From: Candidatus Bathyarchaeum sp.
Lineage (GTDB): Archaea; Thermoproteota; Bathyarchaeia; Bathyarchaeales; Bathyarchaeaceae
DNA: 64,000 nt
Direction of reading: 5' to 3'
Assembly (NCBI GenBank): GCA_026014495.1
Contig: JAOZIF010000171.1
Span: forward strand, 34,997-98,996
The position numbers were made by a program, and so were the translations under genes. Below the pieces are notes generated by a model. That model was not told the DNA's origin and made no database searches. It saw only the letters and a program-made list of their open reading frames with translations. This document shows, in pieces, positions 1 through 21,195 of the stretch (position 1 is its first letter; each line of letters starts with the position of its first letter).

Positions 1-13
1 TTTTTGTCTCCTT

Positions 14-988
14 TTATGTGATTGTTACCTCTTCAAACAGCCAAGTTTTGACTGTGAATTCTGTGCGCCAAATGTAGGGCTTAAAGCGCACATCATCGGT
101 GTCCCTGTAAGAGACCATGTCCACGTAGCAGATTCCCTCAACAGTTACAATACAGTCTGCATAGTCACAGTGGATAGCCGCTGGAGAAACACCGTCGCTT
201 GGGTTGGTTGTTCTGGCAAGCAGATACATGTAACCTTCAGAATCTATGTAGTCTGCGACGGAAGACTCCAAACTTATCGTGACATCCTCGTCTGCGTCTC
301 CTGTTCCAGTTTGCGTGTTCTGCCACTCAGACCCTTCAGAGTTCCAAACTTTCACTGTAACTCCGTTTCCTGCAGGCGCAGTTCCATAGCCTTCAAACTT
401 GAGCACAGCCTTCTTGACAAATTCCTTGTTGGATTCGATTTTGATACAAAACAACAAAAGCGAATATTCTCCATTTTCAGCCTGTTCGTAACTGAAGCTG
501 TTCTCGTCGCTTTGCCACAGCTTCTTGTAATCTGCTGATGAAAACTCTGTCCACTCTACAGAGCTCGGAGCTAATTCAGAAGACGACCCTGTATAGTATG
601 CTCCGTGACCTGCCGTTTCTGCTCCAATATTGACGTAATTGTAGACTGTTTGGTTGGGTTTTGTTCTCTTTTCCCGAACAACCCTGTTAACTTCCTCTCT
701 GAGCTTGTTTCTGATTTGCCTTCCAGCAAAACCTGTCCTCTCAACAACCCAAATTTTGATCCGAGCATACCCGACTCTTCGTCGCAAAGTCGCAGAAAAG
801 CCAAGTTTTTGGTCATCACTATGGTCTAGTCCAACCGTTACCTGTCCGTCAACATCTTTGAGCAACTCCCTGTTATAGTACTCTGTTGTGACACAGATGT
901 CCGCCAAAGAGCCATCATCCTTCACAACCTGAATGTTATTCTCCAACAGCCGCGCAAGAGTCACTGTCGGCTCCTCAATCTGCGCCAT
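14..988 (-). CDS. Putative tail-terminator/tail-completion-like virion protein with an inserted beta-rich domain
   Basis: ATG at 988 overlaps the upstream stop (TAATG); N-terminal TLARLLENN...RIKIWVV...NKLREEVNRVVR and C-terminal IWRTEFTV pattern; follows adaptor and closure genes. Confidence 0.45.
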   Translation of the reverse strand: MAQIEEPTVTLARLLENNIQVVKDDGSLADICVTTEYYNRELLKDVDGQVTVGLDHSDDQKLGFSATLRRRVGYARIKIWVVERTGFAGRQIRNKLREEVNRVVREKRTKPNQTVYNYVNIGAETAGHGAYYTGSSSELAPSSVEWTEFSSADYKKLWQSDENSFSYEQAENGEYSLLLFCIKIESNKEFVKKAVLKFEGYGTAPAGNGVTVKVWNSEGSEWQNTQTGTGDADEDVTISLESSVADYIDSEGYMYLLARTTNPSDGVSPAAIHCDYADCIVTVEGICYVDMVSYRDTDDVRFKPYIWRTEFTVKTWLFEEVTIT

Positions 989-2397
989 TATGCTATAAGC
1001 CTCCTGCAAACTGATCTGCGAAACAAAACTTGCCCCCGAAAACTGTAACACTCAACCGGGCCCACTTCATAGTCGGTGCCGTTGTATCGTAGTTTGCTGT
1101 GGTGCAGTATAGGAGCAAAAGTGTGAACCGTAACGTAGTCGTTTACAACGTAACCCGGCTCCATTACGGTCTCGTCGCTTTTGGCTGGGCAGACTAACGC
1201 TTTGATTGTTGTGCCTTCCCCATAACTGAATGTTTGCTTGTTTTCTACCACTGGATAAACTGTAACATCTACACCATGCGACCGCAAAATTCTGGTGAAT
1301 GGGGTTAGTGGAGCCTGGTAATTCAAAAACAGCAATCCCAGCCACGAAACAGTTACAACAGACTGCTTGTTTTCCACAGCACTGTAATCGTCAAATTTGG
1401 TTCCCCAAAACATGAACTCGCTGCTGTGGTTGCTTATGACATTGAAGCTAAACTCTAGGGATGACTTGTCGTGCCCACTTCTAAGCTGCCACAATATTCC
1501 CGAGGTTACAGCATCATAGTAGTTGCTATCCACCTTTCTGGCAACCACGTCAACGTACCCTGACCAGCAAACCGCAGGATTATATGCAGGATAATCTGCA
1601 CTTGAGCCAATAGCGTTGATGTAATCGTAAACCTGCTTAACCGTGCAACTCCAGCCTTCATAACTAAAAAGCCCATTTAATGCGTAGCCAAAGTCATCAT
1701 CATAGACTACGTCTGATTCTGCAATTCTGTGCCATTCACCGTCTCCGGTTGGAAGTGGAGAATAACGGCTATACAGAGCCTCAAACCCGCTTCTATAAAA
1801 TGCTGTGGCATCATCAATCATGGATTGATACACTGTTTCGCCTGTTTTACTATAGAGCATCTGCAACCCAATCAAGCCATAAAGGTCGATGATGTGCATC
1901 TCACCAAACCACTCATCTGCAATAGTGACTGCCTGAGCAAACCCACCATAATACTGGTCATGCACCCCCAAGTTGCTGGGCTGATGCTGCGTACTGTACA
2001 GAAAAGTTTCCCCAGCCAAAGTAGCACAGTCAAGGTAGGAACTGGTGCCTGTTATATCGTAGGCTTTCAGGAGCGCAGGAATTGCTCGCATTGCATCAAT
2101 GCTGTAATACTGCTCACTGCCATCTTTGCTCTGAAAACCCCCATACGCCAGTTTCCCATCATCTGTACACTGGATTGAAACCAGATAATCCGCAAGCTCA
2201 ACGATTTTATCGAAAATATCCGTTATTTGTTCCTCAAACTGGGAACTCTCATACGTTTCAGCTAAAAAGTCGATAGCATGAGCTGCTGGAGCTGGACCTT
2301 GCCCCCACTGTGTGTCAACTCCTGTTCCGGGGATGACATAAAAGTATGGAGCATAATCCATAATAAAATCGAAATATGCTTGCGGAACTGTTTCCAT
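988..2397 (-). CDS. Helical six-hairpin glycosidase-like domain fused to a C-terminal head-closure-like domain
   Basis: About 360 aa of aromatic/acidic helical repeats (YYSIDAMRAIPALLKAY, DLYGLIGLQML, DDFGYALNGL), then about 105 aa beta-rich tail (IKALV...EPG...YNGTDYEV) in the head-closure gene position. Confidence 0.45.
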   Translation of the reverse strand: METVPQAYFDFIMDYAPYFYVIPGTGVDTQWGQGPAPAAHAIDFLAETYESSQFEEQITDIFDKIVELADYLVSIQCTDDGKLAYGGFQSKDGSEQYYSIDAMRAIPALLKAYDITGTSSYLDCATLAGETFLYSTQHQPSNLGVHDQYYGGFAQAVTIADEWFGEMHIIDLYGLIGLQMLYSKTGETVYQSMIDDATAFYRSGFEALYSRYSPLPTGDGEWHRIAESDVVYDDDFGYALNGLFSYEGWSCTVKQVYDYINAIGSSADYPAYNPAVCWSGYVDVVARKVDSNYYDAVTSGILWQLRSGHDKSSLEFSFNVISNHSSEFMFWGTKFDDYSAVENKQSVVTVSWLGLLFLNYQAPLTPFTRILRSHGVDVTVYPVVENKQTFSYGEGTTIKALVCPAKSDETVMEPGYVVNDYVTVHTFAPILHHSKLRYNGTDYEVGPVECYSFRGQVLFRRSVCRRLIA

Positions 2398-2400
2398 CTT

Positions 2401-2769
2401 CTATATTCTCCTCAGGGTTGACCCCCGCAGCTTGTTCAGGATTCGTTCCAGTTCAGACTGCAGAACCATCAATGGTGGAGCACTATCCAAAACATTGACG
2501 TCTTGGTCGCCCACCGAAAAGCTCAGTCCCACGGCTGAGCCGCCTGTCAGGTAGCAGATTGCATATACTGCAGAAAGGATGGTTATGGCCTCTTTTTCTG
2601 CCTCACTGCAGTCGCTACTGTCTACCTGTTTGTTTGTTTCCAGCTCCAGCGTGACTTGGGCTCGTTTGATCATTTTGGATATTTTATCGTCTGAGACCTC
2701 TTCTGAGGTTATGTTGATTACGTCACGGACGTCGTCGGCTGAAACGGATGCCAAATCGCAAGTCACCAA
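2401..2769 (-). CDS. Head-tail connector/adaptor (gp6/gp15-like)
   Basis: 122 aa, helical VSADDVRDVI...ISDDKISKMIKRA...FSVGD pattern; 3 nt from the next virion gene. Confidence 0.6.
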   Translation of the reverse strand: MVTCDLASVSADDVRDVINITSEEVSDDKISKMIKRAQVTLELETNKQVDSSDCSEAEKEAITILSAVYAICYLTGGSAVGLSFSVGDQDVNVLDSAPPLMVLQSELERILNKLRGSTLRRI

Positions 2770-3059
2770 ACATAATAGAGGAAATAAGGCAGATTTAATG
2801 TTAGTTCACAAAAATAACTGTTTAAAAAGGATTATTTGTAAAATAAAGCGTTTAAATCAGAGTTTTTATTTGATGGTTTGTAGATTAATTGCTCGAAAAC
2901 AGCCTCTCAAAATCAAGGAAACCGAAACGTGGAAACATGACTTCGTGGATGCGACTGTAATTATTTTTGTCAAGAAACTTTGACTGACTTGTATCTTAAG
3001 TTGGTCAAGAAAGTTTTACAAAAATCCTTTTAGACCTATTTTGGACACATTTTCTTGTT

Positions 3060-4364
3060 ATGCATTATAACTTAAGGAAAACTGTAGCAACAGTTGGCTT
3101 GTTTCTTGTTTTTTCTTTTGTTTTAGTACTTGTTGCTCCAGCAGTTAAAGTTGAAACGGAACCGAACACTCTTGTTGTTCCAGACGATTACGCCACGATT
3201 CAGCACGCTATTAACAGTGCAACTCCTAGAGACACTGTGTTTGTTAGAAAAGGCATCTATAACGAAAGTCTGGTAATCAGCAACAAATCTATACAGCTAG
3301 TAGGCGAAGACATGAACTCAACAATTGTGGTTGGAAATGGAAACACTGCTCTTGTTATTCAACATGACAACGTTAACGTGACAGGCTTTACGTTCAAACG
3401 CCCTTCAACGATGAGGTGGCACCGTGGAATTCATCTGCTTGAAGTCAAAAACTGTAATGTGTACGGAAACATGATAACAAGCACCTACTACGGTATATGG
3501 TGCTACAATTCTATGTTCAATAATGTTTACGAAAACATCGTAACAGGAAACATGGCTGGAATAATCTTAGAAATATCGCACAACAACACGGTAACCAGAA
3601 ACTACGTCATAGGCAACGATGGTCAAGGCATAGGAACAATTGGAGCAGATAATAACACAATAACCGAAAACTACGTTGCATCAAATGGTTGGGTGGGCAT
3701 CTGCTTGGATGGCGGCAGCCCCAACTGTAATAACTTGATTTCAGCAAATGTTGTGACACAGAATACTGCCGTTGGAATAAGCATAACATCTGACGGTTCA
3801 GCCTTCAACAGGATTATAGGAAACAACGTTACTGCAAATGGAGACTTAATCGCCTATAATCCGAGTGGCACTGGAATATTACTTAACATTCACGACAACT
3901 TGGTGATGGACAATTACATTATTGGAAATCAAGCGGGAATTCAGCTTGAGTATGCATACAACAACACAGTATACCGCAACTTGATAGCAAACAACACCTA
4001 CGGTGGTATTCGCGACCGCTTCCTGTCAGCTTCTCAAAACATAATTTACGAAAACAACTTCATCAATAACACCGCTAATTTTTCCCAGAATGTCGGCGTA
4101 AACGTTTGGGATGTTAACTCCAAAGGTAACTACTGGAACAACTACAACGGCACAGACAGTAACAATGATGGAATCGGAGATACAGCCCACATCATAGCCG
4201 AAAACAACACTGACTACTATCCACTGATGGAACCTGTTCAAATCCCTGCGCTTGAAATACCTGACACAATCCCAGAATTTCCTTTATGGCTTGTATTGCC
4301 CTTATTTTTTGTTGTTAGTCTAACTGTTTTTGTTGCCAAAACCAAAATTTGCCATCCAATTTAA
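3060..4364 (+). CDS. Secreted right-handed beta-helix (NosD/CASH) surface protein with PEF-CTERM-like tail
   Basis: Signal peptide, VVPDDYATIQHAIN, Asn-rich NNTxxxN repeats, GNYWNNYNGTDSNNDGIGD, C-terminal IPEFPLW + TM + basic residues. Confidence 0.8.
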   Translation: MHYNLRKTVATVGLFLVFSFVLVLVAPAVKVETEPNTLVVPDDYATIQHAINSATPRDTVFVRKGIYNESLVISNKSIQLVGEDMNSTIVVGNGNTALVIQHDNVNVTGFTFKRPSTMRWHRGIHLLEVKNCNVYGNMITSTYYGIWCYNSMFNNVYENIVTGNMAGIILEISHNNTVTRNYVIGNDGQGIGTIGADNNTITENYVASNGWVGICLDGGSPNCNNLISANVVTQNTAVGISITSDGSAFNRIIGNNVTANGDLIAYNPSGTGILLNIHDNLVMDNYIIGNQAGIQLEYAYNNTVYRNLIANNTYGGIRDRFLSASQNIIYENNFINNTANFSQNVGVNVWDVNSKGNYWNNYNGTDSNNDGIGDTAHIIAENNTDYYPLMEPVQIPALEIPDTIPEFPLWLVLPLFFVVSLTVFVAKTKICHPI

Positions 4365-4401
4365 TAGTCAATACGTAACAAAATACAATCAAGGGTACAC
4401 A

Positions 4402-5187
4402 ATGTTCTACGAGAAGTACTTGAAGGCAACCAATGAAAAAGGTAGTTTCATTAACATCAACCTTGATCCAGCACTGCCAAAACAAAGAAGCAGCAACGTA
4501 GTCCCAGACAAATACACATCCAAAGAAGATGCGCAAGCGCTGCTAGACTTTTCTTTGGACATCATCGAGCAGGTCAGCGATTACTGCTGTTCCATAAAAC
4601 CTAATACCCAATATTTCCTTGGACACACAGAGATACTAAAGAAGATAGCAAAAAAGACCCACGACGAAGGTATGCTAGCAATTCTTGACCATAAGCTTAG
4701 TGACATAGGTTCTACAAATGGTTCTGCAATGTTTTGGATACGCGAAATGGGGTTTGATGCGTTCACTTTTTCTCCGTTTGCTGGTAACACGCAAAAGACT
4801 GTGGAGAAAGCTCACGAAAACAACTTGGGCGTAATAGTTCTTACGTTAATGTCTAATCCTGAAGCTGAAAAGATGATGCTGGATGCAACAGTCAACGGGC
4901 GACCTTACTATTTGCACACCGCTAAAACCGTGAAAGAAACACAAGCAGACGGCTGTGTGGTAGGTTTAACCTGCTTTGTTGAAGACAAGTACATCAAAAA
5001 CATCCAGGAGAGTGTAGGAGACAAAGTGATATTTTTGTTGCAGGGCATAGGACCTCAAGGTGGAAGCGCTAACAAGATACGCTATGTTACTAACCCCTTG
5101 GTTAGTTTAGGACGGGCGGTCATCTATTCTGACGACCCCAAAGATGCTGTTGAACAGTATCATCAAATCTTCAAAAAATACCTGTAA
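4402..5187 (+). CDS. pyrF: Orotidine-5'-phosphate decarboxylase
   Basis: NLDP, KPNTQYF, catalytic ILDHKLSDIGST (DxKxxD), GIGPQGG; ATG at 4402 in the 4330 ORF frame. Confidence 0.92.
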   Translation: MFYEKYLKATNEKGSFININLDPALPKQRSSNVVPDKYTSKEDAQALLDFSLDIIEQVSDYCCSIKPNTQYFLGHTEILKKIAKKTHDEGMLAILDHKLSDIGSTNGSAMFWIREMGFDAFTFSPFAGNTQKTVEKAHENNLGVIVLTLMSNPEAEKMMLDATVNGRPYYLHTAKTVKETQADGCVVGLTCFVEDKYIKNIQESVGDKVIFLLQGIGPQGGSANKIRYVTNPLVSLGRAVIYSDDPKDAVEQYHQIFKKYL

Positions 5188-5193
5188 CCTTTG

Positions 5194-5436
5194 TTATATT
5201 ACTTCCATGTATTTTGTTCCTTTCTCTGTAATTGTGTACACTCCTCTGCTAACCCGTTCAATGTACTCTTTTTGCAGTAAATACCTCAGCCGATTATCAA
5301 ACCGTGTCCGAGTAGCCAAAGAATGACAGGTAGTCAAAACATTCTTCTCCAAAACTGTCCAACGCATATCACCCCCCTTAAGGGCAGACAAAATAACCTT
5401 ATCCATCATGTCCTGTTCCTCTCGGCGACGACTCAT
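5194..5436 (-). CDS. Winged helix-turn-helix protein
   Basis: 80 aa; LRYLLQKEYIERVSRGVYTITEKG wing motif. Confidence 0.65.
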   Translation of the reverse strand: MSRRREEQDMMDKVILSALKGGDMRWTVLEKNVLTTCHSLATRTRFDNRLRYLLQKEYIERVSRGVYTITEKGTKYMEVI

Positions 5437-5747
5437 GACATCTTCACCTCCACAGGCTTCTGGCTAGAATAATACGGCGGAGAATGATTATTGCACACAT
5501 AAACTGTTTCTACACTCCACTCTGACGACTCCACAGCTTGCCCCTTCAAAGCTGCACTCTGTTGACTTCCATACGTTTTGGCGTTTAAATCAGCATAAAA
5601 CGGGGTCATCTCGGCGCCACACAAAGGGCAAACACGATAACAACTACACACTGCAGTGTCAGCTGGCCGCTTTTGGTGCATGGTTTTTCCGCACCGCGAA
5701 CAGGTTCCTGTTGCGTATCCAATTTTTGTTGTCAAGTTCCCACCCAC
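5433..5747 (-). CDS. Small Cys-rich zinc-finger protein
   Basis: CSRC, CSC...CPLC, C-x2-H; overlaps both neighbours. Confidence 0.55.
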   Translation of the reverse strand: MGGNLTTKIGYATGTCSRCGKTMHQKRPADTAVCSCYRVCPLCGAEMTPFYADLNAKTYGSQQSAALKGQAVESSEWSVETVYVCNNHSPPYYSSQKPVEVKMS

Positions 5748-7039
5748 ACGTAAGGTTTCGAAATGTTCAAAACGATTTTTCCGTTTTCGTCAAGCCACAG
5801 TTCTGGTAGCCTAACCTTGTACGCGAACACAGCATCTAAGCCAACAGTTTTTGTGTAAGTTTCTGCCTCAACTGCTCCAAAGTAAGCGTCTAAACCAAAA
5901 TCCGTTGCCAAATTAAGCTTCTTGAAAAGTGCATCTAGCTGCATTGCTACTGTTTTGTTGGTTAAAGTGCCAAAGCAAGTGTCCACTGTGAAATTTTTCA
6001 GTATGTCTGGTTTCTTGAAGAGTGCATCAATCTGTTTTTGAAGAGCTACACCTTTTTGAAGCATGGAGTCCAGAGCAAACGTTTTTGGAACATCCTGTTT
6101 TTGTAATTCTATGTCCAAGTTGAAGCTTTGTGTTATTCCCAATTTTTTGAAGAGCGCATCAGTTGTCCACGTTTTTGTATAAGTCTGCTCAGTGGTTTCT
6201 GGTCCAATGTATGTATCTGCGACAACTACGCAGTCAACGTATGTTGTTATTGCTGTTCCTTGTTGTGCACGTTGACCTATGTCGATGCTGTCAAACTCTG
6301 CTGCACCTGATGTGTCCAACCCTGTTTGTGTGATGACCTCAGAGCCATCAAGCCAGACTCTAAATTCGCCATTAGAAGCGTCATTTACAACAGCTTTCAC
6401 TTCTATACAATACCATGTGTCAACTTGGAAACTATGTGTGTAATCATAGTTTGCTGAATTCAGTTGGTCTTCAAGGCGCAATGTTGTGCCAAACACTTCG
6501 ATTTCACAAATACTCGTGTAGGGTGTCCAATCTCGGCACACCATTATCCAGCTACCTGAACCCGTCGGAATTGTAGGCCATCTAAAATACGCTCTCGCAT
6601 AACCTGCTGTTAATCCAGTTGTGAAATTTCGTTTTTGAGCATACGCATTCGACCACGCAGAGGGCGTGCATTCCATTACATAGCTTCCATGATGAGTTGG
6701 GCTTTCGGCAACTGCCACGTTTCCTGACGTAGTAGTCCATGCACTAAAGCCTCCGCTTTCAAAGCCGTCATTAAGAAATTCTGTAAAATACTCAAACAAC
6801 AGTTCTCGTTGCTTTGCAGATAATTTAGGCACCAAAACCTTATGAGCATACTCACTCATGTCCTCGTGGCTTTTGAGAAACCTCGGCGGAACACGCCACC
6901 CTTCTTTTTCAAAAGGGGTTTCGCAATTAGGGCAAAACGAGACCTTAGATTCAACGTAAGTGTAGCAGTCTGGGCAGCGGTACTCCCATCTTGGAAACAG
7001 GTTTAAGACTTTTTTTGGAAGTTTAACTGGAGTCGTCAA
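5732..7039 (-). CDS. Putative virion fibre/decoration protein: zinc ribbon, LamG/concanavalin-like domain, C-terminal repeats
   Basis: CPDC/CPNC; DTWYCIEVK...FRVWLDGSEV...YVDCVVVADTYIG; repeated (L/I)DALFKK units. Confidence 0.5.
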   Translation of the reverse strand: MTTPVKLPKKVLNLFPRWEYRCPDCYTYVESKVSFCPNCETPFEKEGWRVPPRFLKSHEDMSEYAHKVLVPKLSAKQRELLFEYFTEFLNDGFESGGFSAWTTTSGNVAVAESPTHHGSYVMECTPSAWSNAYAQKRNFTTGLTAGYARAYFRWPTIPTGSGSWIMVCRDWTPYTSICEIEVFGTTLRLEDQLNSANYDYTHSFQVDTWYCIEVKAVVNDASNGEFRVWLDGSEVITQTGLDTSGAAEFDSIDIGQRAQQGTAITTYVDCVVVADTYIGPETTEQTYTKTWTTDALFKKLGITQSFNLDIELQKQDVPKTFALDSMLQKGVALQKQIDALFKKPDILKNFTVDTCFGTLTNKTVAMQLDALFKKLNLATDFGLDAYFGAVEAETYTKTVGLDAVFAYKVRLPELWLDENGKIVLNISKPYVWVGT

Positions 7040-7418
7040 TCAAGTTTCCTCCTTCGTCTATGTGCATGACCTGTTTGCCTTCAACACCCAAAACGTAGAC
7101 TATCGGTTTGTGGGCAGCTCCGCCTTTGTGTATCCGCAACTTGATTGTGTTCGTTCTGTACGCCACAAGCTTGTCTCCTTGCTCTAAACTTATGGTGTAT
7201 GACGGATTTTTGGTTGGAACAACAAGAATTTTCTCTGTTTTTAGTATCTTCTGAAATAGCTCCATCGAAAACGGATACCAACCAAAACGCTCTAGCTTCT
7301 GCTGGTTAACTTCTAGGAACATGTTTTCTTTACCTGTTTCTGGGTCAAACTGGGGCAAAGCAGAGCCATCAGTGTATTCGGCTATCCAAAAATAAACTAG
7401 GGGACGATAGCCGATCAT
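7023..7418 (-). CDS. Hypothetical protein of the viral block
   Basis: 131 aa ORF coupled to flanking minus-strand genes. Confidence 0.5.
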   Translation of the reverse strand: MIGYRPLVYFWIAEYTDGSALPQFDPETGKENMFLEVNQQKLERFGWYPFSMELFQKILKTEKILVVPTKNPSYTISLEQGDKLVAYRTNTIKLRIHKGGAAHKPIVYVLGVEGKQVMHIDEGGNLIDDSS

Positions 7419-7430
7419 CTTTTGGTCTCC

Positions 7431-8039
7431 TTAAATCTCGTCGTACTTGAAGCTTAGCGTCTCGTCTGCTTGTTCCCCTTGCACAGCGTCATTTGCTACT
7501 TTACACTGCAAAACCACTGCTTTGGTTTTCTCTGCACTGGTATGGTCAGTAGAGTCAATTATCGCAGGTGAACCTTCAGTGTCACTGGCTACGTCCGCGG
7601 TTGGAGTTGTTTGACTGTTATAGTAACTGTGTCCATTTGTGGCGTCTTCTATGCTGTCTCCCGTGTCTGCTTCTGTTCCCGTTGCCACCTCATACTCCGA
7701 GGGCATCGCACATCCGTGGTCGCCAGAGTCCCTGTTTCCACGTCGAAGTTCGCCTCCTGTTCCAAAATTCCATCCAATTGCCCCATCAGAACAAAAACGC
7801 ACATTGTTAATCTGCGTAAAAGTTCCACTAAGGTCCAAACAGACATGAATCCAGTAGCTATAATTGAAGTCACTGCTCGGTATAGAAATCGGGTAAGACG
7901 TGTCTGCAGGAGCAAACTGGTCTTTTGTCTGCAATCGCGTACTTGCTGTGACATTATTGTAGCTTGCTGGGCTGCCGTCTGAGCCGCCAACTGTTTGCTG
8001 CACATTTACTGTTGCAACCATCTCTTTTGTTTCCTCCAT
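7431..8039 (-). CDS. Putative virion structural protein (acidic, Ser/Thr/Gly-rich, beta-rich)
   Basis: Located just downstream of the capsid gene; composition typical of structural proteins. Confidence 0.5.
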   Translation of the reverse strand: MEETKEMVATVNVQQTVGGSDGSPASYNNVTASTRLQTKDQFAPADTSYPISIPSSDFNYSYWIHVCLDLSGTFTQINNVRFCSDGAIGWNFGTGGELRRGNRDSGDHGCAMPSEYEVATGTEADTGDSIEDATNGHSYYNSQTTPTADVASDTEGSPAIIDSTDHTSAEKTKAVVLQCKVANDAVQGEQADETLSFKYDEI

Positions 8040-8048
8040 TCTCCTTTT

Positions 8049-8264
8049 TTATGATATATTTTCTGAAATTTGTTCAATGAACTTAGCTGGGTCTCGGGTT
8101 ATTGTGACCGTTTTTGTGGTTGTGTCACTGGTAACTTGGAGCTGTGTGATGTAACCTGCATCATCACGGGTTATTGTGACGGTGTGTGGTGTCTTGATTC
8201 CGTGGATTGCGTCATGGATTGCTTTGTAAGCTTCAGTGTAGTTGCCCCAGTTAGTTTCACTCAT
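8049..8264 (-). CDS. Small hypothetical protein with a duplicated TVTITRD motif
   Basis: 71 aa directly after the capsid gene; AGGAG SD for the next gene follows. Confidence 0.45.
   Translation of the reverse strand: MSETNWGNYTEAYKAIHDAIHGIKTPHTVTITRDDAGYITQLQVTSDTTTKTVTITRDPAKFIEQISENIS
8095..8180. repeat. 14-bp direct repeat cgggttattgtgac (8095-8108, 8167-8180)
   Basis: Read directly; 72-nt spacing preserves frame and encodes the TVTITR duplication. Confidence 0.85.
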
Positions 8265-8314
8265 GTTTTTTCACCAAAAAATGGGGAAGTTGAGTCAACG
8301 GCTAACAAACTGTT

Positions 8315-9235: not shown

Positions 9236-9249
9236 AGTATATTCCTCTG

Positions 9250-9669: not shown

Positions 9670-9706
9670 GTTAACTTCCTCCAGTTTTTTTGCGGTTTCG
9701 TCAAGT

Positions 9707-10924: not shown

Positions 10925-11104
10925 ACTTTTGCACCTAACATGATTGGTGCGATGCAATGTTAAAAGATGAAATCAGCACTTGAGACAGATTAACTATTGT
11001 GCCATACTTGGTTTTTGTTGTTTTATTTTCGGTTACCTCTCTATGGAACGTTGTTGTTTGTTGGTTAACAGCCTTTTTAGCTGTATTTAGTGAACTTCTT
11101 GGTT

Positions 11105-11320
11105 ATGGTAAAAATACAAAAACGGCTAGTGAAGAAGCGATACTACAGTAAGGCAGAATACAAGTACCCAGTGTATTCTTTGACTATACCTAAGGAGTTT
11201 CACGACCTTCTTAAACCGTTCTTAGATGAAGACTTGGAAGCAAAAGTAGAACACAAAACAGATGTTTTAACAATCACTCTAATGCCAAGCAGTCACAATT
11301 CATCCCGAACCAAGTTTTGA
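11105..11320 (+). CDS. Small AbrB/SpoVT-like DNA-binding protein
   Basis: YSLTIPKEFHDLL...LEAKVE...LTITL pattern; divergent from the capsid operon. Confidence 0.45.
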   Translation: MVKIQKRLVKKRYYSKAEYKYPVYSLTIPKEFHDLLKPFLDEDLEAKVEHKTDVLTITLMPSSHNSSRTKF

Positions 11321-12003
11321 AATCTTTTTTTGAACTTCAGAAATTATTTATCTGGATTCTTGTTAACTCAGCTTGGGGCATGCTTGTTATGTTTAATAGT
11401 AAAAAGAATCCTGAGCCTTTTACAGACTTTCTTTATTGTTTAGGGAGTTTGGAGCGCAAAAACAGCCAACTATTTGCTGAATTGGCAAGCAAAACCGTTC
11501 TTTCTGAGGTTCGGGGCAACTTGCTCAAGATTTCTGAGGGCAATGAAATGCATGCCAAAGTTCTCATCGAATTGAGTGGTCGGGTTGAGGGTCCAAAGCC
11601 AAAAACAGGTGAGTGTAAACGAAAACTAAGACCTGTGTGTAAACTTACTGAGTCACTTCTTAATCAGGTGCACAAAAAGAAGACGCTTTCTGCAGATGAG
11701 CTTTCATCTATTTTGCTGACTTTGGAGCGTTCAGGTGGTGCTATGCAGTATTTGCAGATTCAGGCTGAAACTTTTCTTTTTATGTCAAAAGAAATCAGTC
11801 AACTGTATGGCATGAACTTGGAAGTTTTTCATGACCATATTATGGAAATTGCTCAACAAGTGGAAGAACATATAGAACTTTTGGAGGAAGTGAAAACGAT
11901 GATTGCACAGAGCACTAGGAAAAAGGATGGAATGCATCATCCAGTGGTTAAGTACCAAACTCCTGATGCATGGTTTCAACCAAGAACTATGGGTGAATCA
12001 TAG
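11317..12003 (+). CDS. Ferritin-like helical protein
   Basis: Paired LE.....F..LA and E.H / EEH helices; start uncertain. Confidence 0.5.
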   Translation: MKSFFELQKLFIWILVNSAWGMLVMFNSKKNPEPFTDFLYCLGSLERKNSQLFAELASKTVLSEVRGNLLKISEGNEMHAKVLIELSGRVEGPKPKTGECKRKLRPVCKLTESLLNQVHKKKTLSADELSSILLTLERSGGAMQYLQIQAETFLFMSKEISQLYGMNLEVFHDHIMEIAQQVEEHIELLEEVKTMIAQSTRKKDGMHHPVVKYQTPDAWFQPRTMGES

Positions 12004-12507
12004 TTAAAACTGGTTTAGGCTAAACAGTTCGTCTTTTTGTTTCTTTTTTCTTGGTTTGGGTGTTTCTGCAGGATACCCAAAAGTGACTAGGGCTACGACT
12101 TTCCAGTCTTGAGGAATTTTCAGAGCCTGTTTGATTTTCTCTTCGTTGAAACTTCCTATCCAGCATGAACCGACTCCTAAGCTCCAAGCAGCAAGAACCA
12201 TGTTTTCTAAGGCAATTGTAGTGTCGATTGTTGCCCATTTTCCAGTTAACACTGCTTTTGGGTTAGCACATCCAACAATTATAACAGGGGCTTTTTCGAG
12301 GAATTGACTAAGAAGCCCCTTCAGTTCTTTTTTGATTTTGGCATCTGTTACAATAACGAAGCGGTATGGCTGTCTGTTTGCTGCGGAAGGTGACTGTCTA
12401 CCTGCTTCAACTATCTGATCCAAAACATCTTTTGGAATTTCCTTGTTTTCGTAACGTCTAATGCTTTTGCGACTTAAAATAATTTTAAGTATGGACATGA
12501 GCATCAA
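12004..12507 (-). CDS. Nitroreductase family protein
   Basis: RKSIRRY, SPSAANRQPYRFVIV, LGVGSCWIG. Confidence 0.9.
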   Translation of the reverse strand: MMLMSILKIILSRKSIRRYENKEIPKDVLDQIVEAGRQSPSAANRQPYRFVIVTDAKIKKELKGLLSQFLEKAPVIIVGCANPKAVLTGKWATIDTTIALENMVLAAWSLGVGSCWIGSFNEEKIKQALKIPQDWKVVALVTFGYPAETPKPRKKKQKDELFSLNQF

Positions 12508-12637
12508 TACTATTTTGTGGTTTATTGTATATTTATCTGTTCAAACAGTGTGTTTTTGGTTAGTTAATTGCTTGATGGAAATATTTAATTAGCTAACTAA
12601 CTATTTTTGATTGATCCTAAACACTAGAGGAATCTGA

Positions 12638-13063
12638 TTGGAAGACAGTTTGAGCTATTTGTTACGCACTGTTGCAATGCGATACCGTTACTATGCACAC
12701 AACATGTTAGGTAAAGACAAATGGGGCGTCAGCCAAGATTTAATCATTTACCATCTTGCAAAACAAAAACATCTTAATCAAAAGGACCTTGTCAACAAAC
12801 TAAACATTACACCCGCTTCAGTTTCAAGTGTTGTTGGTCAGATGGAATCTGAAGGATTACTTGTAAGAGTTCAAGACGAAGAAGATGCAAGAAAATTTAG
12901 ATTATCGCTAACCGAGAAAGGCCAGAATCTGTTGCCCCCTGTAATAAATTCGTGGCTTAACATCCAAGAAGACATAACCAAAGGGTTCACTGAAGAAGAA
13001 AAAGTAACCTTTTTACGTCTTTTAAAGCAAGTAGAACGGAATCTTGACGAGCTAACCCATTAA
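12638..13063 (+). CDS. MarR family regulator
   Basis: QKDLVNKLNITPASVSSVVGQMESEGLLVR...LSLTEKG. Confidence 0.9.
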   Translation: MEDSLSYLLRTVAMRYRYYAHNMLGKDKWGVSQDLIIYHLAKQKHLNQKDLVNKLNITPASVSSVVGQMESEGLLVRVQDEEDARKFRLSLTEKGQNLLPPVINSWLNIQEDITKGFTEEEKVTFLRLLKQVERNLDELTH

Positions 13064-13065
13064 CA

Positions 13066-14280
13066 TTGAAAGAGGACTATTTGTTGAAAAATAACCAAAA
13101 ACCTGAAGCAGACGATTTCGTGTTTGACAAGCGACTCTACGTAATATTCTTGATAATATTCACAGAAGTGTTGGGTTTCAGCATAGTCTTGCCGTTAATC
13201 CCCTTTTTAGGATTAGAGCTTGGATTAACTGCAGTGCAAATAGGGCTTATTGCAAGTGTGTTCAGTGTCTGTCAATTATTTGCCAGCCCAATAACAGGCA
13301 AACTAAGTGACCACTTTGGACGCAAACCATTGTTCATCTTAAGTCAAATAAGCACATTTGCTGGTTTCATCTTCCTTGGATTTGCTACAACTGCAATTCT
13401 GTTAATTATTGCACGGTTAATTGACGGATTACTCGGAAGTAACATGACTGTCAGCGAAGCCTACATCAGCGACATAACTGAACCTAAACACCGAACCCGA
13501 GTCTACGGATATTCCAGTGGAGTATTTGGCGCTGGGTTGATATTTGGTCCTGTTATTGGCGGTGTTCTATCTACAATTAATTATTCTATTCCAATGTTCT
13601 TTGCAGCAGGCATAACATTGGTTTCAATTATCCTGATTTTTTTCCTTCCTGAAACAGTAACTAAAAAGACAGGCAAACTTTCTCTTAGCTTCAATGATGT
13701 TCTTCCTGTTAATGATGTTAAATCCTTCATAAAAAACCACAAAGTAAGAAACAGTTTGTTAATGTTTTTTATTTACAACATCGGATTTCAATTGTTTATC
13801 TCTAACTTTAGTTTACTCGCAGAAAGCCAATTTAACGCCAGCGCTAACCAAGTTAGCTTTTACATGGCATGGATTGGCATACTACGCGTAATCATCCAAA
13901 CACTCCTAATTGCCCGTGTACTGCGCGCCTTGGGTGAAAGACACATCCTAATAACAGGAATACTTTCCATGGCCCTTTCAATGATAACTATTGCATTTTC
14001 GACAGAATATCTGTTTGTTTTCGTTCCATTAATCTTTCTTGCCTATGGCACAGGAGTCAGCAGACCCATTTTAACAAGTAAACTAACAAACAGCGTTACA
14101 CAAAAGGAAACTGCAACAATCCTAGGCGTTAACAACTCACTAAATAGCGTAGCCCAAATAATAACACCAATTGTAGGAGGATTTGTAATTGAGTACTTGC
14201 CATCACAAACGTTACCTATAATGTCAACTGTGTTCTTTGCATCACTGTTACTCTTTCTAAGAAACAGGGCTAAACCTTAA
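13066..14280 (+). CDS. MFS transporter (TetA/DHA1-like)
   Basis: GKLSDHFGRK motif A, about 12 TM segments. Confidence 0.9.
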   Translation: MKEDYLLKNNQKPEADDFVFDKRLYVIFLIIFTEVLGFSIVLPLIPFLGLELGLTAVQIGLIASVFSVCQLFASPITGKLSDHFGRKPLFILSQISTFAGFIFLGFATTAILLIIARLIDGLLGSNMTVSEAYISDITEPKHRTRVYGYSSGVFGAGLIFGPVIGGVLSTINYSIPMFFAAGITLVSIILIFFLPETVTKKTGKLSLSFNDVLPVNDVKSFIKNHKVRNSLLMFFIYNIGFQLFISNFSLLAESQFNASANQVSFYMAWIGILRVIIQTLLIARVLRALGERHILITGILSMALSMITIAFSTEYLFVFVPLIFLAYGTGVSRPILTSKLTNSVTQKETATILGVNNSLNSVAQIITPIVGGFVIEYLPSQTLPIMSTVFFASLLLFLRNRAKP

Positions 14281-14313
14281 TCCTACTACCATACAAATAG
14301 TGTTTGAATTAGC

Positions 14314-15588
14314 ATGGTTAATTTAGCAGTTATAGGCGCAGGAATCGGAGGTTGTTCTGCAGCATATTTTGCTCACAAATATATTCCAGACTCAAAGGTG
14401 ACTGTTTATGAGATGGAAAACAGAGTCGGTGGAAGAGCCTTTACTTACTCTAAAGAAGAAATGAACACTGAGTTGGGTGCAGAGTTCTTCAATCCCACTA
14501 ACAAGACAGTCTGCAACCTTGTAGATGAACTGGGTCTCAAAGTAAAGAAACTCAAGGAGACTACAGATATTGCAGTATGGAATGGAACAGAAATCATCTT
14601 CAAGTCAAGTCAGCCAATGTTTTATAATCTGCTAAAACTGTTCACCAAATACAAGCTTAGTGTGCCACGGCTACTTCGCATGTTAAGAGAAGCAAATGGA
14701 CAAATAAAAAAATTATACACAAAAGAAAAACCTGCAGAGTTCTGGGAACATTTTGAAAATGTTGGTCTTGACAAGTGGCATAAACTGCGGTTTGACAACA
14801 TTTTGGTTAACATGGGAATTGACCACAAATTTATAGATGAAATAATCACGCCTATCACAAGGATAATTTACTCCCAAAACGCTGAGCTGGGAGGATTCGC
14901 TGGGCTCTCAGCTTTACTGGGCGTCTATGGAGAAGCAATTTACCGTCTCAAAGACGGCAACGATAGTTTGCCAAGAAAGCTTCTTGAAGCATCCCCTTCT
15001 AAGCTTGAATTAGAAAGCAAAGTGAAAAGCATCGAAAAAACCTCTAAAGGCTCTTTTAGGATCTTAGTTGGAGAGAATGCCTCAGTTTTTGATGCCGTGA
15101 TTATTGCAACACCATTAGAAGTCGCTGATATAGCCATTGACGGAGTGCCAAAACAGTTGCAAGCACGTGAATACCAGAAAATCTACATCAGATTAATGAA
15201 GGGAACTGTAAATTTGAGGTATTTTAATCTTAATGCATCCGATAAATTGCCCTCTATTATCCTCACTTCCAAACAAGCAGATCCACTAACTCGGTTTTCA
15301 TTTAATAAATCACCAAAAAGCGATGAAACGTGGGTGAGTGTCACCTCAACGGAGCCAATAGGAAACGATCTTTTAGACGAGCTTTTCGAGAACGGGAGAA
15401 CTATTGTAGATCATACTTGGAATGCAGCATACCCAATTTTCAAACCAACCCCGAAACTTCCATCTACTTGCCTTGACAAGGGACTACTATACCTTAACTC
15501 GATAGAATCTGCAGCCTCAAGCCTAGAATCATCAACGTTTGCCGCCCTAAACAGCATAAAAATAATAAAAGAACAACTAGACACCTAA
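14314..15588 (+). CDS. FAD-dependent oxidoreductase, prenylcysteine oxidase/lyase-like
   Basis: VIGAGIGGCSAAY, VGGRA, ELGAEFFNPTN, VWNG, ITRIIYSQN, GNDSL. Confidence 0.7.
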   Translation: MVNLAVIGAGIGGCSAAYFAHKYIPDSKVTVYEMENRVGGRAFTYSKEEMNTELGAEFFNPTNKTVCNLVDELGLKVKKLKETTDIAVWNGTEIIFKSSQPMFYNLLKLFTKYKLSVPRLLRMLREANGQIKKLYTKEKPAEFWEHFENVGLDKWHKLRFDNILVNMGIDHKFIDEIITPITRIIYSQNAELGGFAGLSALLGVYGEAIYRLKDGNDSLPRKLLEASPSKLELESKVKSIEKTSKGSFRILVGENASVFDAVIIATPLEVADIAIDGVPKQLQAREYQKIYIRLMKGTVNLRYFNLNASDKLPSIILTSKQADPLTRFSFNKSPKSDETWVSVTSTEPIGNDLLDELFENGRTIVDHTWNAAYPIFKPTPKLPSTCLDKGLLYLNSIESAASSLESSTFAALNSIKIIKEQLDT

Positions 15589-15733
15589 CATTGCAGCAAA
15601 ACTAATGCTAGATTGTGTTATCACCTGAATAACAGTAATTGCCAGTTCTCTCAAGCTGAGGATTAAAATTTGACTTTTCCTTTTTTATTTATTCAAGATA
15701 TCTTTTTATCAACTAGCTAATCTAGTAATATTC

Positions 15734-16636
15734 ATGCCTGAGAGGGAGAAACGGGTTCGTTTTGCTGCGTTTTTGAATGTTGCCTTCACTATCTTAGAGC
15801 TTGTTGGCGGATTGTGGACAAACAGCCTTGCAATTCTTTCTGACGCATTACATGACTTCGGCGACAGTGTCGCATTACTAGCCTCATGGCTTTTCGAACG
15901 TGGCGCACGCAAATCACCTGATACAAACCGAACATTCGGGTACCAACGGCTATCCCTGTTTTCTGCAATATTTGCCGCTTCTATCCTTATTGGAGGTTCT
16001 ATCATAATCATCTTTCAGGCCATACCTCGTTTATTAAATCCAGAAGCTGTAAACGCAACTGGAATGGTTGGCATCGCCATCATAGGCATCGTATTCAATG
16101 GCACAGGATTCTTTTTACTAAAAAAAGGAGAAAGCCTAAACGAAAAAGTGCTTTCTTGGCATCTCCTAGAAGATGTACTAGGTTGGGTAGGCATTCTTGC
16201 TGGAGCAATAGTAATCTACTTCTGGAAAATTTACATCCTTGACCCAATAATAACAATCGGCTTAACTGTCTTCATCCTCTACAACGTAACAAAAAGTCTC
16301 ACAGAAGCAATCAATATCCTTTTGCAGGGTGTGCCAAAACACATCAATCTCGAAGTCGTCAAACAAGACCTAAAATCAATCAAAGGCGTAATTGGAATCC
16401 ACGATATCCACATCTGGTCCTTAGAGGGAGAAACCGATGTCTTCACAGCACATGTAGTGCTAGACAATGAAACCCTAAAAAGCCCTGAACCCACCAAACA
16501 AACAATCAAAAAAACACTCCAAAAACATCACATTGAACATTCAACAATTGAACTAGAAAGCAAATACCACTGCTCAGGCATGATATGTGAAGAACGGCAC
16601 ACAAACAACAAACCAAACAGCGCCCCTGAAAAATAG
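15734..16636 (+). CDS. Cation diffusion facilitator (CzcD-like Zn/Co/Cd exporter)
   Basis: LSDALHDFGD, HLLED, IHDIHIW, EHSTIELE. Confidence 0.92.
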   Translation: MPEREKRVRFAAFLNVAFTILELVGGLWTNSLAILSDALHDFGDSVALLASWLFERGARKSPDTNRTFGYQRLSLFSAIFAASILIGGSIIIIFQAIPRLLNPEAVNATGMVGIAIIGIVFNGTGFFLLKKGESLNEKVLSWHLLEDVLGWVGILAGAIVIYFWKIYILDPIITIGLTVFILYNVTKSLTEAINILLQGVPKHINLEVVKQDLKSIKGVIGIHDIHIWSLEGETDVFTAHVVLDNETLKSPEPTKQTIKKTLQKHHIEHSTIELESKYHCSGMICEERHTNNKPNSAPEK

Positions 16637-16870
16637 TTCTTATCCAAGAAAAACAAGGTTTTTGACCCCGGCAAAACAACACAAACAGCCTCACTCAAGC
16701 AGCAGTTTTAACATGAACTTAGATACTGTTTTCATATATCTACCCGAAGAAACGTTTTCGCCCTAGGCGTTTCTTTCCGAATAACTGTTTTACCGCAGCC
16801 CAAAACAGACCAAACATGTAAAAAAAAGTGATAGCTCCGAAAAAGCTTTCATTTTAGTTGGTGATGCTGT

Positions 16871-17182
16871 ATGCGTCGTGGACCAAAAAAAGGCTCAAAA
16901 TTCTGTGACTTGCTAGAGGCACTAAAATTTCTTAACATGTTCAAAAAAACTCCAAAAAACGTGTACCAACTCTATCACAGTAGCCTGCATTTTGACACCA
17001 AAAAAATCTACCGTTACCTTAGATACTGTATCAAAGAAGAGCTTCTAGAAATTGACCACATCGAAGAGGCAAAATTTCTTCCCTCAAAATACTACAGGCT
17101 CACACAGAAAGGAAGAGACTTCATTGACCTCTTCAATGATTCACACAAGAAACCATTAGCACCTAAACAAAACTCGGCATAG
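16871..17182 (+). CDS. Winged helix-turn-helix protein
   Basis: YRYLRYC...YYRLTQKGRDF wing motif; directly upstream of the portal gene. Confidence 0.65.
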   Translation: MRRGPKKGSKFCDLLEALKFLNMFKKTPKNVYQLYHSSLHFDTKKIYRYLRYCIKEELLEIDHIEEAKFLPSKYYRLTQKGRDFIDLFNDSHKKPLAPKQNSA

Positions 17183-17224
17183 ATGCTCATTTTAACTTAA
17201 GACCAAAAATCACCCACAAAACTG

Positions 17225-18442
17225 TTGGATGTAACAACCTTGAGCGCAGTTGTAAAAAAATTCAAACACCTATACGAAAAACTGCAACCAAACACCGGAA
17301 CTCTTCTTCCTGCATGGCGACAAGTCTATGGAGAAACTCGAACAGTCAGTTTCGGTGACATGCTAACCGCTTATGGTCAAGATCCAAGCTGCAAGGCTTT
17401 TGTTGATTTCTTGGCTGACCAAGCTGTAGGTGCAGGGTTCTATACTACAGTTAACGAGCAATACGGCAAAGCTGACCAAACAAAACAAATAGTGGACGAC
17501 TTCAACGAAGCCGTCAACCTTGATGAACTACTCCAAATCGCAGCCAGAGAAATTGTAGCATCAGGCAATAGTTTTTGGCTAAAAACTGAACCCGAAAATC
17601 TGCAAAACCTCAAAATCCTTCCACTAACCGGATTTGATAACCCAACTGCAATAAAACGAAACCAATACGGCACCGTAACAGGTTACAACTACATCTACGG
17701 CGAAGTAAAAACGGCCTTTACACCAGAAAAAATAGTCCACTTCCGTTGGAACCCAACAAATTTTTCAGCATATGGAACTGGTGTCCTTCAAGTATTGCTC
17801 AGCGAACTATGCTTCAACGGAGAAACCAGACTCAGCTTTTTGGAAATGAAAGCCCGAATCGAAAAAATTATGCCTGAAATCTTCGAAAAATATGCAGGAC
17901 CAGACGAACTGTGGATATTCGCCGGGGCAAGCGACGAAAAACTTGCAGAATACCAAAAACTCATAAAAACAAAACCCAAAGCTGGTGCACGATTTGTTTA
18001 CAACAAACCAGAAGCAGACATAAAAACTGTTTCTGTTGACCCAAGGGCACGGTACGAACCCTACATAGATCATGTTCTAAACCAAGTCTATCTGGGCGGA
18101 CAAACTCCCCTGCCAAAGCTTTTTACAACTCCTGGATTCACAGAAGCATCTGCCCGAGCAGCCCTAGACATCGCAGAAAGGAAAGTCATGGCACTGCAAC
18201 GCTTCGTAAAACGAACCTGCGAGCGAGAAATCTTTTCTCCTATAATACAGCAGGCGGGACTTGACCCCAAAAAGGCAAATTGCAGACTAAACTGGGGCAC
18301 AGAAAAACCTGAAGTTAAACTCGAAGACCTAATCCGATTAGCCGAAATGAGCTCTAATCAAGAAAATCCGATTGTGAGACCTGAGGAAGTGAGAAAAAAC
18401 TTGGTTAAAGCAGGCTTTGAGTTGTGGGAAAGAAACCAGTAA
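17225..18442 (+). CDS. Phage-type portal protein
   Basis: 405 aa; AREIVASGNSFW, LKILP, EKIVHFRWN...YGTGVL, ERKVMALQRFV...EIFSPI. Confidence 0.75.
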   Translation: MDVTTLSAVVKKFKHLYEKLQPNTGTLLPAWRQVYGETRTVSFGDMLTAYGQDPSCKAFVDFLADQAVGAGFYTTVNEQYGKADQTKQIVDDFNEAVNLDELLQIAAREIVASGNSFWLKTEPENLQNLKILPLTGFDNPTAIKRNQYGTVTGYNYIYGEVKTAFTPEKIVHFRWNPTNFSAYGTGVLQVLLSELCFNGETRLSFLEMKARIEKIMPEIFEKYAGPDELWIFAGASDEKLAEYQKLIKTKPKAGARFVYNKPEADIKTVSVDPRARYEPYIDHVLNQVYLGGQTPLPKLFTTPGFTEASARAALDIAERKVMALQRFVKRTCEREIFSPIIQQAGLDPKKANCRLNWGTEKPEVKLEDLIRLAEMSSNQENPIVRPEEVRKNLVKAGFELWERNQ

Positions 18443-18458
18443 CCGGGAGGTGAGGTAT

Positions 18459-18662
18459 TTGGGATTAGAATTTAAGCCAAAACTCTCCGTTATTATAGCG
18501 GCAATTCATGGTGTATCTATAGCTTTGTCTTACATAGTTACTCAGGGCGACATTACCGCCATGGTTTTGTGGGCAGCGGTATCTGCGGGTGCAACAGCGG
18601 GACTAAGTTACTACACGGAGCAAGAACAAACAGACGATTCAGTCGAGAGTTCTGCATCATAA
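18459..18662 (+). CDS. Small two-TM protein (holin-like)
   Basis: TTG at 18459 after GGAGGTGA (18446-18453); two hydrophobic segments and an acidic tail. Confidence 0.4.
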   Translation: MGLEFKPKLSVIIAAIHGVSIALSYIVTQGDITAMVLWAAVSAGATAGLSYYTEQEQTDDSVESSAS

Positions 18663-18797
18663 GCATGTGCTAACATTTTTACGTTAGTTGTAGTATTTCA
18701 CATCCATTTTTCTATATTTTTTTTCTATAACATAACTTCAGAAGCCATTTAAATGAATGTATGCTTACGTAACTAGTCTCTAAAGGAGATTTCCGTC

Positions 18798-20051: not shown

Positions 20052-20081
20052 CGTTTTTTGTCTCCTTTAAACATTGCACCG

Positions 20082-21188: not shown

Positions 21189-21195
21189 CAGCTTT

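Follow-up and report, generated by a model that had tools for sequence, protein, structure and literature searches.

Virus-like particles that carry host DNA and do not propagate themselves are known from archaea and bacteria alike, among them VTA of Methanococcus voltae and PBSX of Bacillus subtilis, the latter a contractile-tail defective prophage that kills sensitive cells. To our knowledge, gene transfer agents (GTAs) are well characterized in bacteria only, and the archaeal transfer activity of VTA has been reported without defined genes. A GTA-like status has been suggested for three archaeal elements, Nvie-Pro1, NCAV2-Pro1 and CalSub-Pro of Thaumarchaeota and Caldarchaeum, to which the relevant portion of the article describing them assigns full virion modules and no att or replication genes (Krupovic et al., 2019; PMC6563490). 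Here we describe a virus-derived locus in the chromosome of Candidatus (Ca.) Bathyarchaeum sp. that we consider a plausible, though not a proven, candidate for an archaeal GTA-like system. Our analysis started from a stretch of 64,000 nucleotides (the window; contig C113, 34,997-98,996) of the assembly G000, which comprises 2.19 Mb in 196 contigs, C113 being 99 kb long. Coordinates refer to the window unless prefixed C113 or L002, and G001, G003 and so on denote genomes of relatives. We propose, with a probability of roughly 0.55, that the locus is an immobilized provirus, inherited vertically and kept by selection, whose products would assemble into DNA-packaging particles of a GTA-like or PBSX-like kind.

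Gene content and inheritance of the locus

By its gene content, the locus appears to descend from a temperate virus of Ca. Bathyarchaeum that was small and tailed (Caudoviricetes, HK97 fold). It spans ~26.4 kb (C113:27,307-53,658), of which window positions 14-18662 are the right-hand two thirds, and consists of three virus blocks, tail/terminase, head and portal, interleaved with the host's only pyrF and a redox/efflux island. An original prediction, made from the letters of this stretch, had described intact HK97 head and neck genes parted into three blocks by host genes and had suggested that they are retained for a host function. The layout is as it described: the blocks are separated by a NosD-like gene together with pyrF (3060-5187) and by a nitroreductase/MarR/MFS/FAD-oxidoreductase/CDF island (11317-16636), and the virus open reading frames (ORFs) of the window stretch are closely packed or overlapping, with neither stops nor visible frameshifts. 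The same prediction held that the span contains no terminase, integrase, att pair or replication gene. This is true inside the span, but TerL and tail genes lie 0-6.3 kb to its left on the same contig, where the minus-strand operon runs on past the window edge. The missing terminase was an artefact of that edge, because an intact large terminase gene (TerL) sits 4.9-6.2 kb left of the window. TerL matches Terminase_6N (71 bits) and phrog_2 (5e-45), has a weak Terminase_6C match (18.7 bits, under the cut-off of 22.6) and retains its catalytic motifs: Walker A (RQSGKS), Walker B (VYWDE), SST and the aspartates of the nuclease. On the minus strand, a tail tube gene that matches Phage_tube_2 (4e-24) ends just 2 bases outside the left edge of the window.

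The head genes that had been named in the window are partly confirmed. The HK97-fold major capsid protein (8315-9235, minus strand) is recognized by Pfam Phage_capsid_4 (30.3 bits; cut-off 27) and by a PHROG major head protein family (4e-9), with five PHROG major-head families matched in all, and the cement/scaffold-like head protein of DUF2190 type (9250-9669, minus strand) by Phage_cement_2 (40.8 bits, 3e-10) and phrog_673 (8e-16). Upstream of both lies the gene for a 416-amino-acid (aa) probable prohead protease/scaffold (9707-10957, minus strand), whose translation probably starts ~11 codons into the ORF, near 10924. The predicted protease label is consistent with its position and with its ESM language-model features, which are close to DUF2213 (0.90) and Peptidase_S78 (0.89), and the family alignment contains invariant His, Asp-His and Ser columns, but no family match was obtained in Pfam, PHROG or PDB sequences (profile search), nor by hhalign against HK97 gp4. 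We treat the protease assignment as a lead.

The portal protein (17225-18442, plus strand) has a PHROG match that is weak by itself (4e-5), and its profile found nothing significant among PDB sequences. A profile search of 1.84 billion representatives returned 585 relatives; 98 were aligned, and Portal_Mu and Phage_portal of Pfam match 30 and 20 of these 98, respectively. An AlphaFold model from 8 close orthologs was unusable (pLDDT 40) and was replaced by one from the 98-sequence alignment (pLDDT 91), whose best Foldseek matches are the portals of HFTV1 (Haloferax tailed virus 1), lambda, RcGTA and G20c (E 2e-10 to 7e-9; for the first three, E up to 5e-9 and probability 1.00). Because relatives fall into Pfam portal families and the model matches known portals at the level of the fold, we consider the predicted portal identity to be real.

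A tyrosine integrase (PF00589) is encoded nowhere on the 99-kb contig, and no integrase was found on the contigs that carry the orthologous element in G001 (C3, 265 kb) and G018 (C6). There are no tRNA genes that might serve as integration targets in C113 or in the relatives' loci. An att search in the flanks of G000, G005 and G033 gave just 10-18-nt matches at chance level, and no meaningful repeats occur in window 1-20000. Pfam and PHROG scans matched no replication gene family in any ORF of the locus, a few small ORFs being still unannotated. A complete provirus continuing past the left edge was among the outcomes that the original prediction had set against itself; terminase and tail genes do continue leftward, but without att sites or an integrase. 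It appears that the integrase and replication module were lost or never present. Because it lacks an integrase, holds the host's only pyrF (single copy in the G000 assembly) and is split by 17 kb in G011, the locus should be unable to move as a unit.

The same locus with the same interleaving, pyrF between head and tail and the efflux island between head and portal, is found in G001, G018 and G014 and also in G015, and an IMG/VR contig carries the head block together with pyrF and the first part of the tail block, ending before the efflux island and portal. The locus is also present in G013 and G011, with the junction at pyrF but without the efflux island. The tail/terminase block has additionally been lost from G013 (C9). 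Compared with G000, G011 has a 35-kb inversion, through which an intact tail block (C4) has come to lie apart from intact head and portal blocks (C16), with 17 kb of host genes in the gap; the contig break falls inside the DegT gene. Seven genomes, G000, G001, G018, G014, G011, G015 and G023, have orthologs of all three of capsid, TerL and portal, none of them with a stop; the G023 TerL is cut by a contig end. The capsid is 91-95% identical in 8 other species (of 24 other species of the genus searched), TerL has orthologs of 81-85% identity in 8 species, and whole portal orthologs of 82-89% identity occur in 10 other genomes of the genus, with two contig-end pieces in G007 and a broken gene in G017.

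Divergence was estimated as Nei-Gojobori dS on concatenated codon alignments, with the unlinked aEF-2 gene as host comparison. In the virus blocks, dS is the same as in the host genes on either side and comes near the aEF-2 value. For the pair G001-G018 it is 0.31 in the host flanks, 0.29 in the head and 0.34 in the tail block; for G013-G011, 0.54 in the flanks, 0.48 in the head block and 0.39 in aEF-2; for G001-G011, 0.79, 0.79, 0.92 and 1.00 in flanks, head, tail and aEF-2; and for G000-G001, 1.16, 1.14, 1.22 and 1.04 in the same order. Concatenated dN/dS is 0.05-0.16 in host flanks, head and tail alike. Among single genes, the capsid has dN/dS 0.02-0.05 (~0.04 for pairs with G000; 0.12 for the closest pair, G001-G018), the portal 0.06-0.07 (~0.06 for pairs with G000; 0.15 for G013-G011a), and, for pairs with G000, TerL ~0.10 and the tube ~0.07-0.09, all four being somewhat higher in the closest pairs. 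As an internal negative control, the shadow ORFs antisense to the 122-aa and cement genes have acquired stops and have dN/dS of 0.25-0.87. The head-block tree and the tail-block tree are each congruent with that of the flanking host genes. Because dS is host-like, the trees are congruent and dN/dS is low, we conclude that the locus has diverged with the chromosome under purifying selection throughout. The checks on selection and tree congruence that the original prediction had called for thus turned out in its favour.

Full, partial and empty states of the locus are intermixed on the tree of flanking host genes. G006 (C6) keeps the winged-helix, portal and 81-aa genes alone, plus fragments of the ABC/GNAT, 469-, 435- and 416-aa genes; G009, G016, G019 and G020 contain single virus remnants at matching positions; G003, G005 and G024 have no virus genes at the locus; and the portal gene of G017 is in two pieces (G017:C203). 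Virus-free loci read HTH_45, pyrF, island, 76-aa gene, DegT, so that host order and virus order are both collinear and interleaved with one another. A patchy distribution had been named as a sign against retention for a host function. The distribution is indeed patchy, extending to about half of the genus, but the remnants show loss and not gain. The most parsimonious account is a single ancient locus that was interleaved from early on and later underwent deletion again and again, and the comparison of genomes places the interleaved arrangement in the common ancestor of the sampled species. The origin of the interleaving lies beyond the reach of synteny with other genera, which stops left of the locus and is hence uninformative. 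Among the sequencing runs, none of RNA was listed. A sediment DNA run containing 22% of the words gave short contigs representing a mixture of relatives, which are uninformative on the junctions; one low-depth contig of this run joins 5836 to 10724, resembling a deletion of the G006 type.

Domestication is favoured because the particle genes, although the locus is immobile, have stayed intact with dN/dS at the level of host genes across divergences of dS 0.3 to >1. Infectivity gives nothing to a provirus that is fixed at one site, and the intact genes therefore point to some other cause of retention. Synteny, dS, dN/dS and the missing integrase all agree with the predicted retention for a host function, whereas two variants of that proposal, a DNA-free particle and a capsid compartment, are less likely than a DNA-packaging particle because TerL is intact. 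We propose that the small regulators in and beside the locus would switch the operons on in some cells, and that portal, protease/scaffold, capsid and cement proteins would then build a procapsid. TerL, with its ATPase and nuclease motifs intact, would fill this procapsid with DNA, and that DNA would be chromosomal because the locus neither excises nor replicates. Addition of a tube-type tail would complete the particles before their release. In this proposal, we infer from the genes that the locus is expressed, that particles assemble and contain DNA, and that the host benefits.

Competing explanations

A more specific form of the proposal seems possible to us but doubtful: that the locus is a working archaeal GTA exchanging pieces of chromosome, in which a pyrF delivered by the virus replaced the native gene, locked the locus in and survived later deletions. 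The pyrF gene (OMP decarboxylase; 4330-5187, plus strand; Pfam OMPdecase 1.4e-25) lies between the tail and head blocks; it is present in 24 of the 25 genomes of the genus and stands at this locus in all 16 that were examined. Its slot is the position at which compact, integrase-bearing relatives of the element hold cargo on the opposite strand, and pyrF sequences of this genus share 39-46% identity with those of several other Bathyarchaeia families and orders, as against 29-35% with those of their own order. Because of this position and this similarity, arrival with the virus is suggested, and the gene may be a xenologous replacement delivered in the virus cargo slot.

Several observations weigh against the proposal of an immobilized provirus making DNA-packaging particles. 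Its particles, their expression and the host DNA packaged in them are projected from genes. Neither a tape measure nor a small terminase was recognized in the locus, and the protease is a language-model lead for which direct searches were negative. At 26.4 kb, the locus is about as long as the whole genome of the compact relatives, which could allow self-packaging. A sibling compact element is present in the same genome, and it has relatives with an integrase. For the deeper pairs, dS above 1 is near saturation, although that of the two closest pairs is not. In G013, which has head and portal, and in G006, which has the portal only, branch dN/dS is ~0.08-0.09, and no TerL was found in either genome; because genes are constrained there without TerL, a low branch-averaged dN/dS does not prove that the full set is selected. 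Finally, the locus has been lost from roughly half of the genus, and any benefit must be dispensable.

The compact relatives bear most directly on an alternative that we regard as unlikely, namely that the element is a still-infectious temperate virus that co-speciates with its host, integrates at one site, carries pyrF and the island as cargo (~26 kb) and is helped by the host or a sibling to replicate and excise. Compact versions occur in G005 (Ca. Bathyarchaeum tardum; C1 ~630-654 kb), on contig C5 of G011, in G033, which belongs to another genus, and on IMG/VR contigs L059-L061. They share with the locus a portal gene divergent from protease, cement and capsid, a cargo slot, the tail genes, TerL and the ABC-ATPase/GNAT gene, with capsid identities of 71-90%. 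Unlike the locus, they are contiguous, their structural genes taking up ~19 kb, occupy other sites in the chromosome and are without pyrF, the efflux island and the 71-, 202-, 131- and 435-aa genes. In G005 and G011, a tyrosine integrase is encoded 4-8 kb beyond the ABC/GNAT gene, whereas the pyrF locus has none. The similar overall length (~24 kb from portal to integrase in G005) and the place of pyrF, exactly where G005 has an opposite-strand restriction-enzyme-like gene, suit an infectious virus with cargo, as does the closer similarity of pyrF to that of other orders.

Siblings that might supply the missing functions are carried by both G000 and G011. The fragmented element of G000 may occupy the same chromosomal site as the G005 provirus; its G005-type pieces are on contigs C67 and C160 (TerL 89%, HSDR_N-domain protein 88%). 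The host genes on the right flank of the G005 provirus match the start of G000 contig C46. No sibling was found in G001 or G018, however, and because these two genomes hold one capsid, one TerL and one portal gene each, the pyrF-locus element is independent of a sibling. None of the species examined has an integrase or att site at the locus, and the host-equal dS and congruent trees speak against any transfer between species. Virus-free loci keep the order of pyrF and the island with virus remnants between them, and the inversion in G011 has parted the blocks with both left intact. A provirus fixed at one site in the species would also gain nothing from being infectious.

Distinctly improbable, in our estimate, is that the locus was domesticated for a use other than transfer, such as killing of the PBSX or tailocin type, exclusion of viruses, or separate employment of the capsid or portal. 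Such a use would explain why G013 keeps head and portal and G006 the portal at low dN/dS in genomes where no TerL was found, although the deletions in both may be recent. That a related compact virus circulates in the genus would suit virus exclusion, and the 435-aa protein is hypervariable. Constraint is, on the other hand, equal on TerL, portal, capsid and tail genes in seven species, as fits a complete, DNA-filled particle, and no sheath or bacteriocin-type gene was recognized in the locus.

We find it very hard to believe that the locus is an inert provirus remnant, decaying slowly and without function. The repeated deletions in G006, G009, G013, G016, G019 and G020, the full loss in G003, G005 and G024 and the broken portal of G017 are what such a remnant would leave, but ~25 ORFs have stayed open at dS of 0.3 to >1 with dN/dS ~0.1 while antisense frames gained stops. 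A misassembly or a binning chimera of virus and host contigs, conceivable for a metagenome-assembled genome of 196 contigs that contains a second, fragmented related element, can be dismissed because the junctions of the 80-aa helix-turn-helix (HTH) gene with pyrF, of the tail block with pyrF and of the island with the portal recur in G001, G018 and G014, each assembled independently, and the two junctions with pyrF in the IMG/VR contig as well; the junction check raised by the original prediction is thereby answered.

Further genes of the blocks and their surroundings

The tail/terminase block begins with a 122-aa protein (2401-2769, minus strand; 84% identity in G001 and G018), for which the predicted label of adaptor finds no support. 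It is followed by a 469-aa protein (988-2397, minus strand) that had been taken for a head-closure fusion, an identity we reject. Its nearest ESM Atlas clusters are 62-73% viral, with leads to C5-epimerase, GH127 and GH88, and a profile search of PDB sequences gave a weak C5-epimerase match and nothing significant; these features suggest a virus-associated, (alpha/alpha)6 glycan-enzyme-like protein. The gene is kept in all copies, with dN/dS of 0.06-0.25 by pair (0.06-0.11 for pairs with G000). Next, just upstream of the tube gene, is a 345-aa protein (14-1051, minus strand) with a weak phrog_5793 match, no PDB match and orthologs in G001 and G018 that are 74-76% identical (dN/dS 0.14-0.21); nothing supports its earlier description as terminator-like.

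Left of the window, the tube gene is followed in the operon by a 188-aa gene, a gp10-like tail-completion gene (phrog_5 1e-20), a 181-aa gene, a 552-aa tail hub-like protein (weak matches to tail proteins, phrog_400, and to the gp5/Vgr OB fold), three small genes and TerL; the 188-aa, 181-aa and small genes are placed by their position in the operon. The block ends, on the minus strand, with a 478-aa fusion (L002:9807-11243, C113:27,310-28,743) of a soluble ABC-type ATPase (Walker A GDSGSGKS, signature LSDGQ, and a Walker B motif) to a GNAT acetyltransferase domain. This gene follows TerL in every copy of the family that reaches that far (53-85% identity, dN/dS 0.09-0.13). A PHROG scan of divergent homologs from G005 and G033 gave no further assignments.

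In the head block, the order is probable protease, cement, capsid, accessory genes, zinc ribbon and HTH gene. Following the capsid, three small genes of 131, 202 and 71 aa (7023-8264, minus strand) are confined to the pyrF-locus lineage; the 131-aa protein matches phrog_11178 (3e-8), and the 202-aa protein is 80-86% identical across species, with dN/dS of 0.03-0.06 when G000 is one of the pair and as high as 0.24 in the closest pair. The next gene encodes a hypervariable 435-aa protein (5732-7039, minus strand), a lineage-specific accessory with an N-terminal zinc ribbon and a weak polysaccharide-lyase-like match. Its identity between species is just 42-49% and its dN/dS 0.13-0.30 (median ~0.23), while its neighbours are otherwise conserved; it has a 36% paralog on contig C73 and no counterpart in the compact forms. 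We suggest that this protein could have a receptor-binding or decoration role. A 104-aa zinc-ribbon protein (5433-5747, minus strand; weak zinc-ribbon matches) also follows the capsid gene in the compact relatives. The last gene of the block encodes an 80-aa winged-helix regulator (5194-5436, minus strand; phrog_2440 transcriptional regulator 5e-8) with orthologs of 86-90% identity, a remnant of which persists in G006, G009 and G020.

Divergent from the head operon is a small 76-aa gene (11090-11320, plus strand), whose product we read from its sequence pattern as an AbrB/SpoVT-like DNA binder. Its orthologs are 72-84% identical (dN/dS 0.03-0.09; 0.16 for G013-G011a); the gene is present in G033, and a remnant persists in G016. 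The portal block, in the order winged HTH, portal and two-transmembrane protein, opens with a 103-aa winged-helix, PadR-like protein (16871-17182, plus strand; weak PadR and HTH_45 matches; orthologs 76-79% identical) and closes with an 81-aa protein (18417-18662, plus strand; orthologs 59-70% identical). The translation of the latter has two hydrophobic segments, which makes its predicted holin-like nature plausible.

Among the host genes, the NosD-like beta-helix surface protein (3060-4364, plus strand; Pfam NosD 1.7e-28) belongs to a host multigene family with many paralogs in G000, and its place in this slot is specific to the species, being empty of it in G001, G018 and G013. The island between the head and portal blocks (11317-16636) comprises a gene for a 228-aa protein and then, at 12004-16636 and identified by Pfam, the nitroreductase, MarR, MFS transporter, FAD oxidoreductase and CDF transporter genes; the same island adjoins pyrF in the virus-free loci of G005 and G016 and is missing from G013 and G011. 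The fraction of G or C at third codon positions (GC3) in the head block (0.42) and the portal block (0.39) resembles that of host genes (0.40); in the tail block it is somewhat higher (0.46). A simple scan of the G000 assembly found no CRISPR arrays.

About 0.5 kb right of the portal block starts a glycan-synthesis cluster (19167-21807) with a GT2 glycosyltransferase, a DegT-type aminotransferase and a hexapeptide acyltransferase, the latter two kept in most of the species examined. Two 242-aa paralogs of 50% identity (L002:8010-8738 and window 33588-34316), ~43 kb apart on the same contig, flank the locus and have no Pfam match.

Comparison with known systems

The Bathyarchaeum locus resembles RcGTA of Rhodobacter capsulatus and other alphaproteobacterial GTAs (6TBA, 6TOA) in being a chromosomal set of head, tail and terminase genes without integrase or replication genes, and in its vertical inheritance, purifying selection, loss in some lineages and partial dispersal. 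The RcGTA portal is among the matches of our portal model (Foldseek E 2e-9). Small genes of HTH and AbrB-like type are present within the locus and next to it. The two are nevertheless of independent origin, RcGTA having a bacterial host and no sequence relationship to the locus beyond shared folds. For RcGTA, packaging of random host DNA, a small head and regulation by the host have been demonstrated, and for VTA and PBSX activity is known, whereas the Bathyarchaeum locus is known from its genes alone.

Enterobacterial defective prophages, in work by Bobay, Touchon and Rocha from 2014, were reportedly inherited vertically, kept under purifying selection and eroded by deletions. Domesticated prophages of enterobacteria usually keep scattered genes, whereas the Bathyarchaeum locus keeps a complete morphogenesis set. 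Our literature search found no paper that links Bathyarchaeia to gene transfer agents in substance; papers on viruses and proviruses of Bathyarchaeia describe other families and, in the portions that treat these elements, mention neither GTAs nor the locus of this genus.

The closest archaeal parallels are chromosomal loci which likewise combine full virion modules with the absence of att and replication genes, but which belong to another virus lineage and host class; in the portion of the article concerned, the argument for them proceeds from gene content and the conservation of the morphogenetic module (Krupovic et al., 2019; PMC6563490). For the Bathyarchaeum locus, by comparison with these elements as portrayed there, co-divergence, dN/dS, interleaving and stepwise decay have been measured across species.

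The locus offers a defined set of genes from a sediment lineage that is abundant and has a relative in culture, Ca. Bathyarchaeum tardum, and the natural deletion series of the locus (full; head and portal; portal only; none) can guide experiments. If its particles carry host DNA, they would provide a route of gene exchange in Bathyarchaeia; if they do not, the locus would still be a clear archaeal case of long-term domestication of a provirus. What sets it apart from the known GTA-like loci is its interleaving with host genes, together with measured co-divergence, selection and a series of decay.

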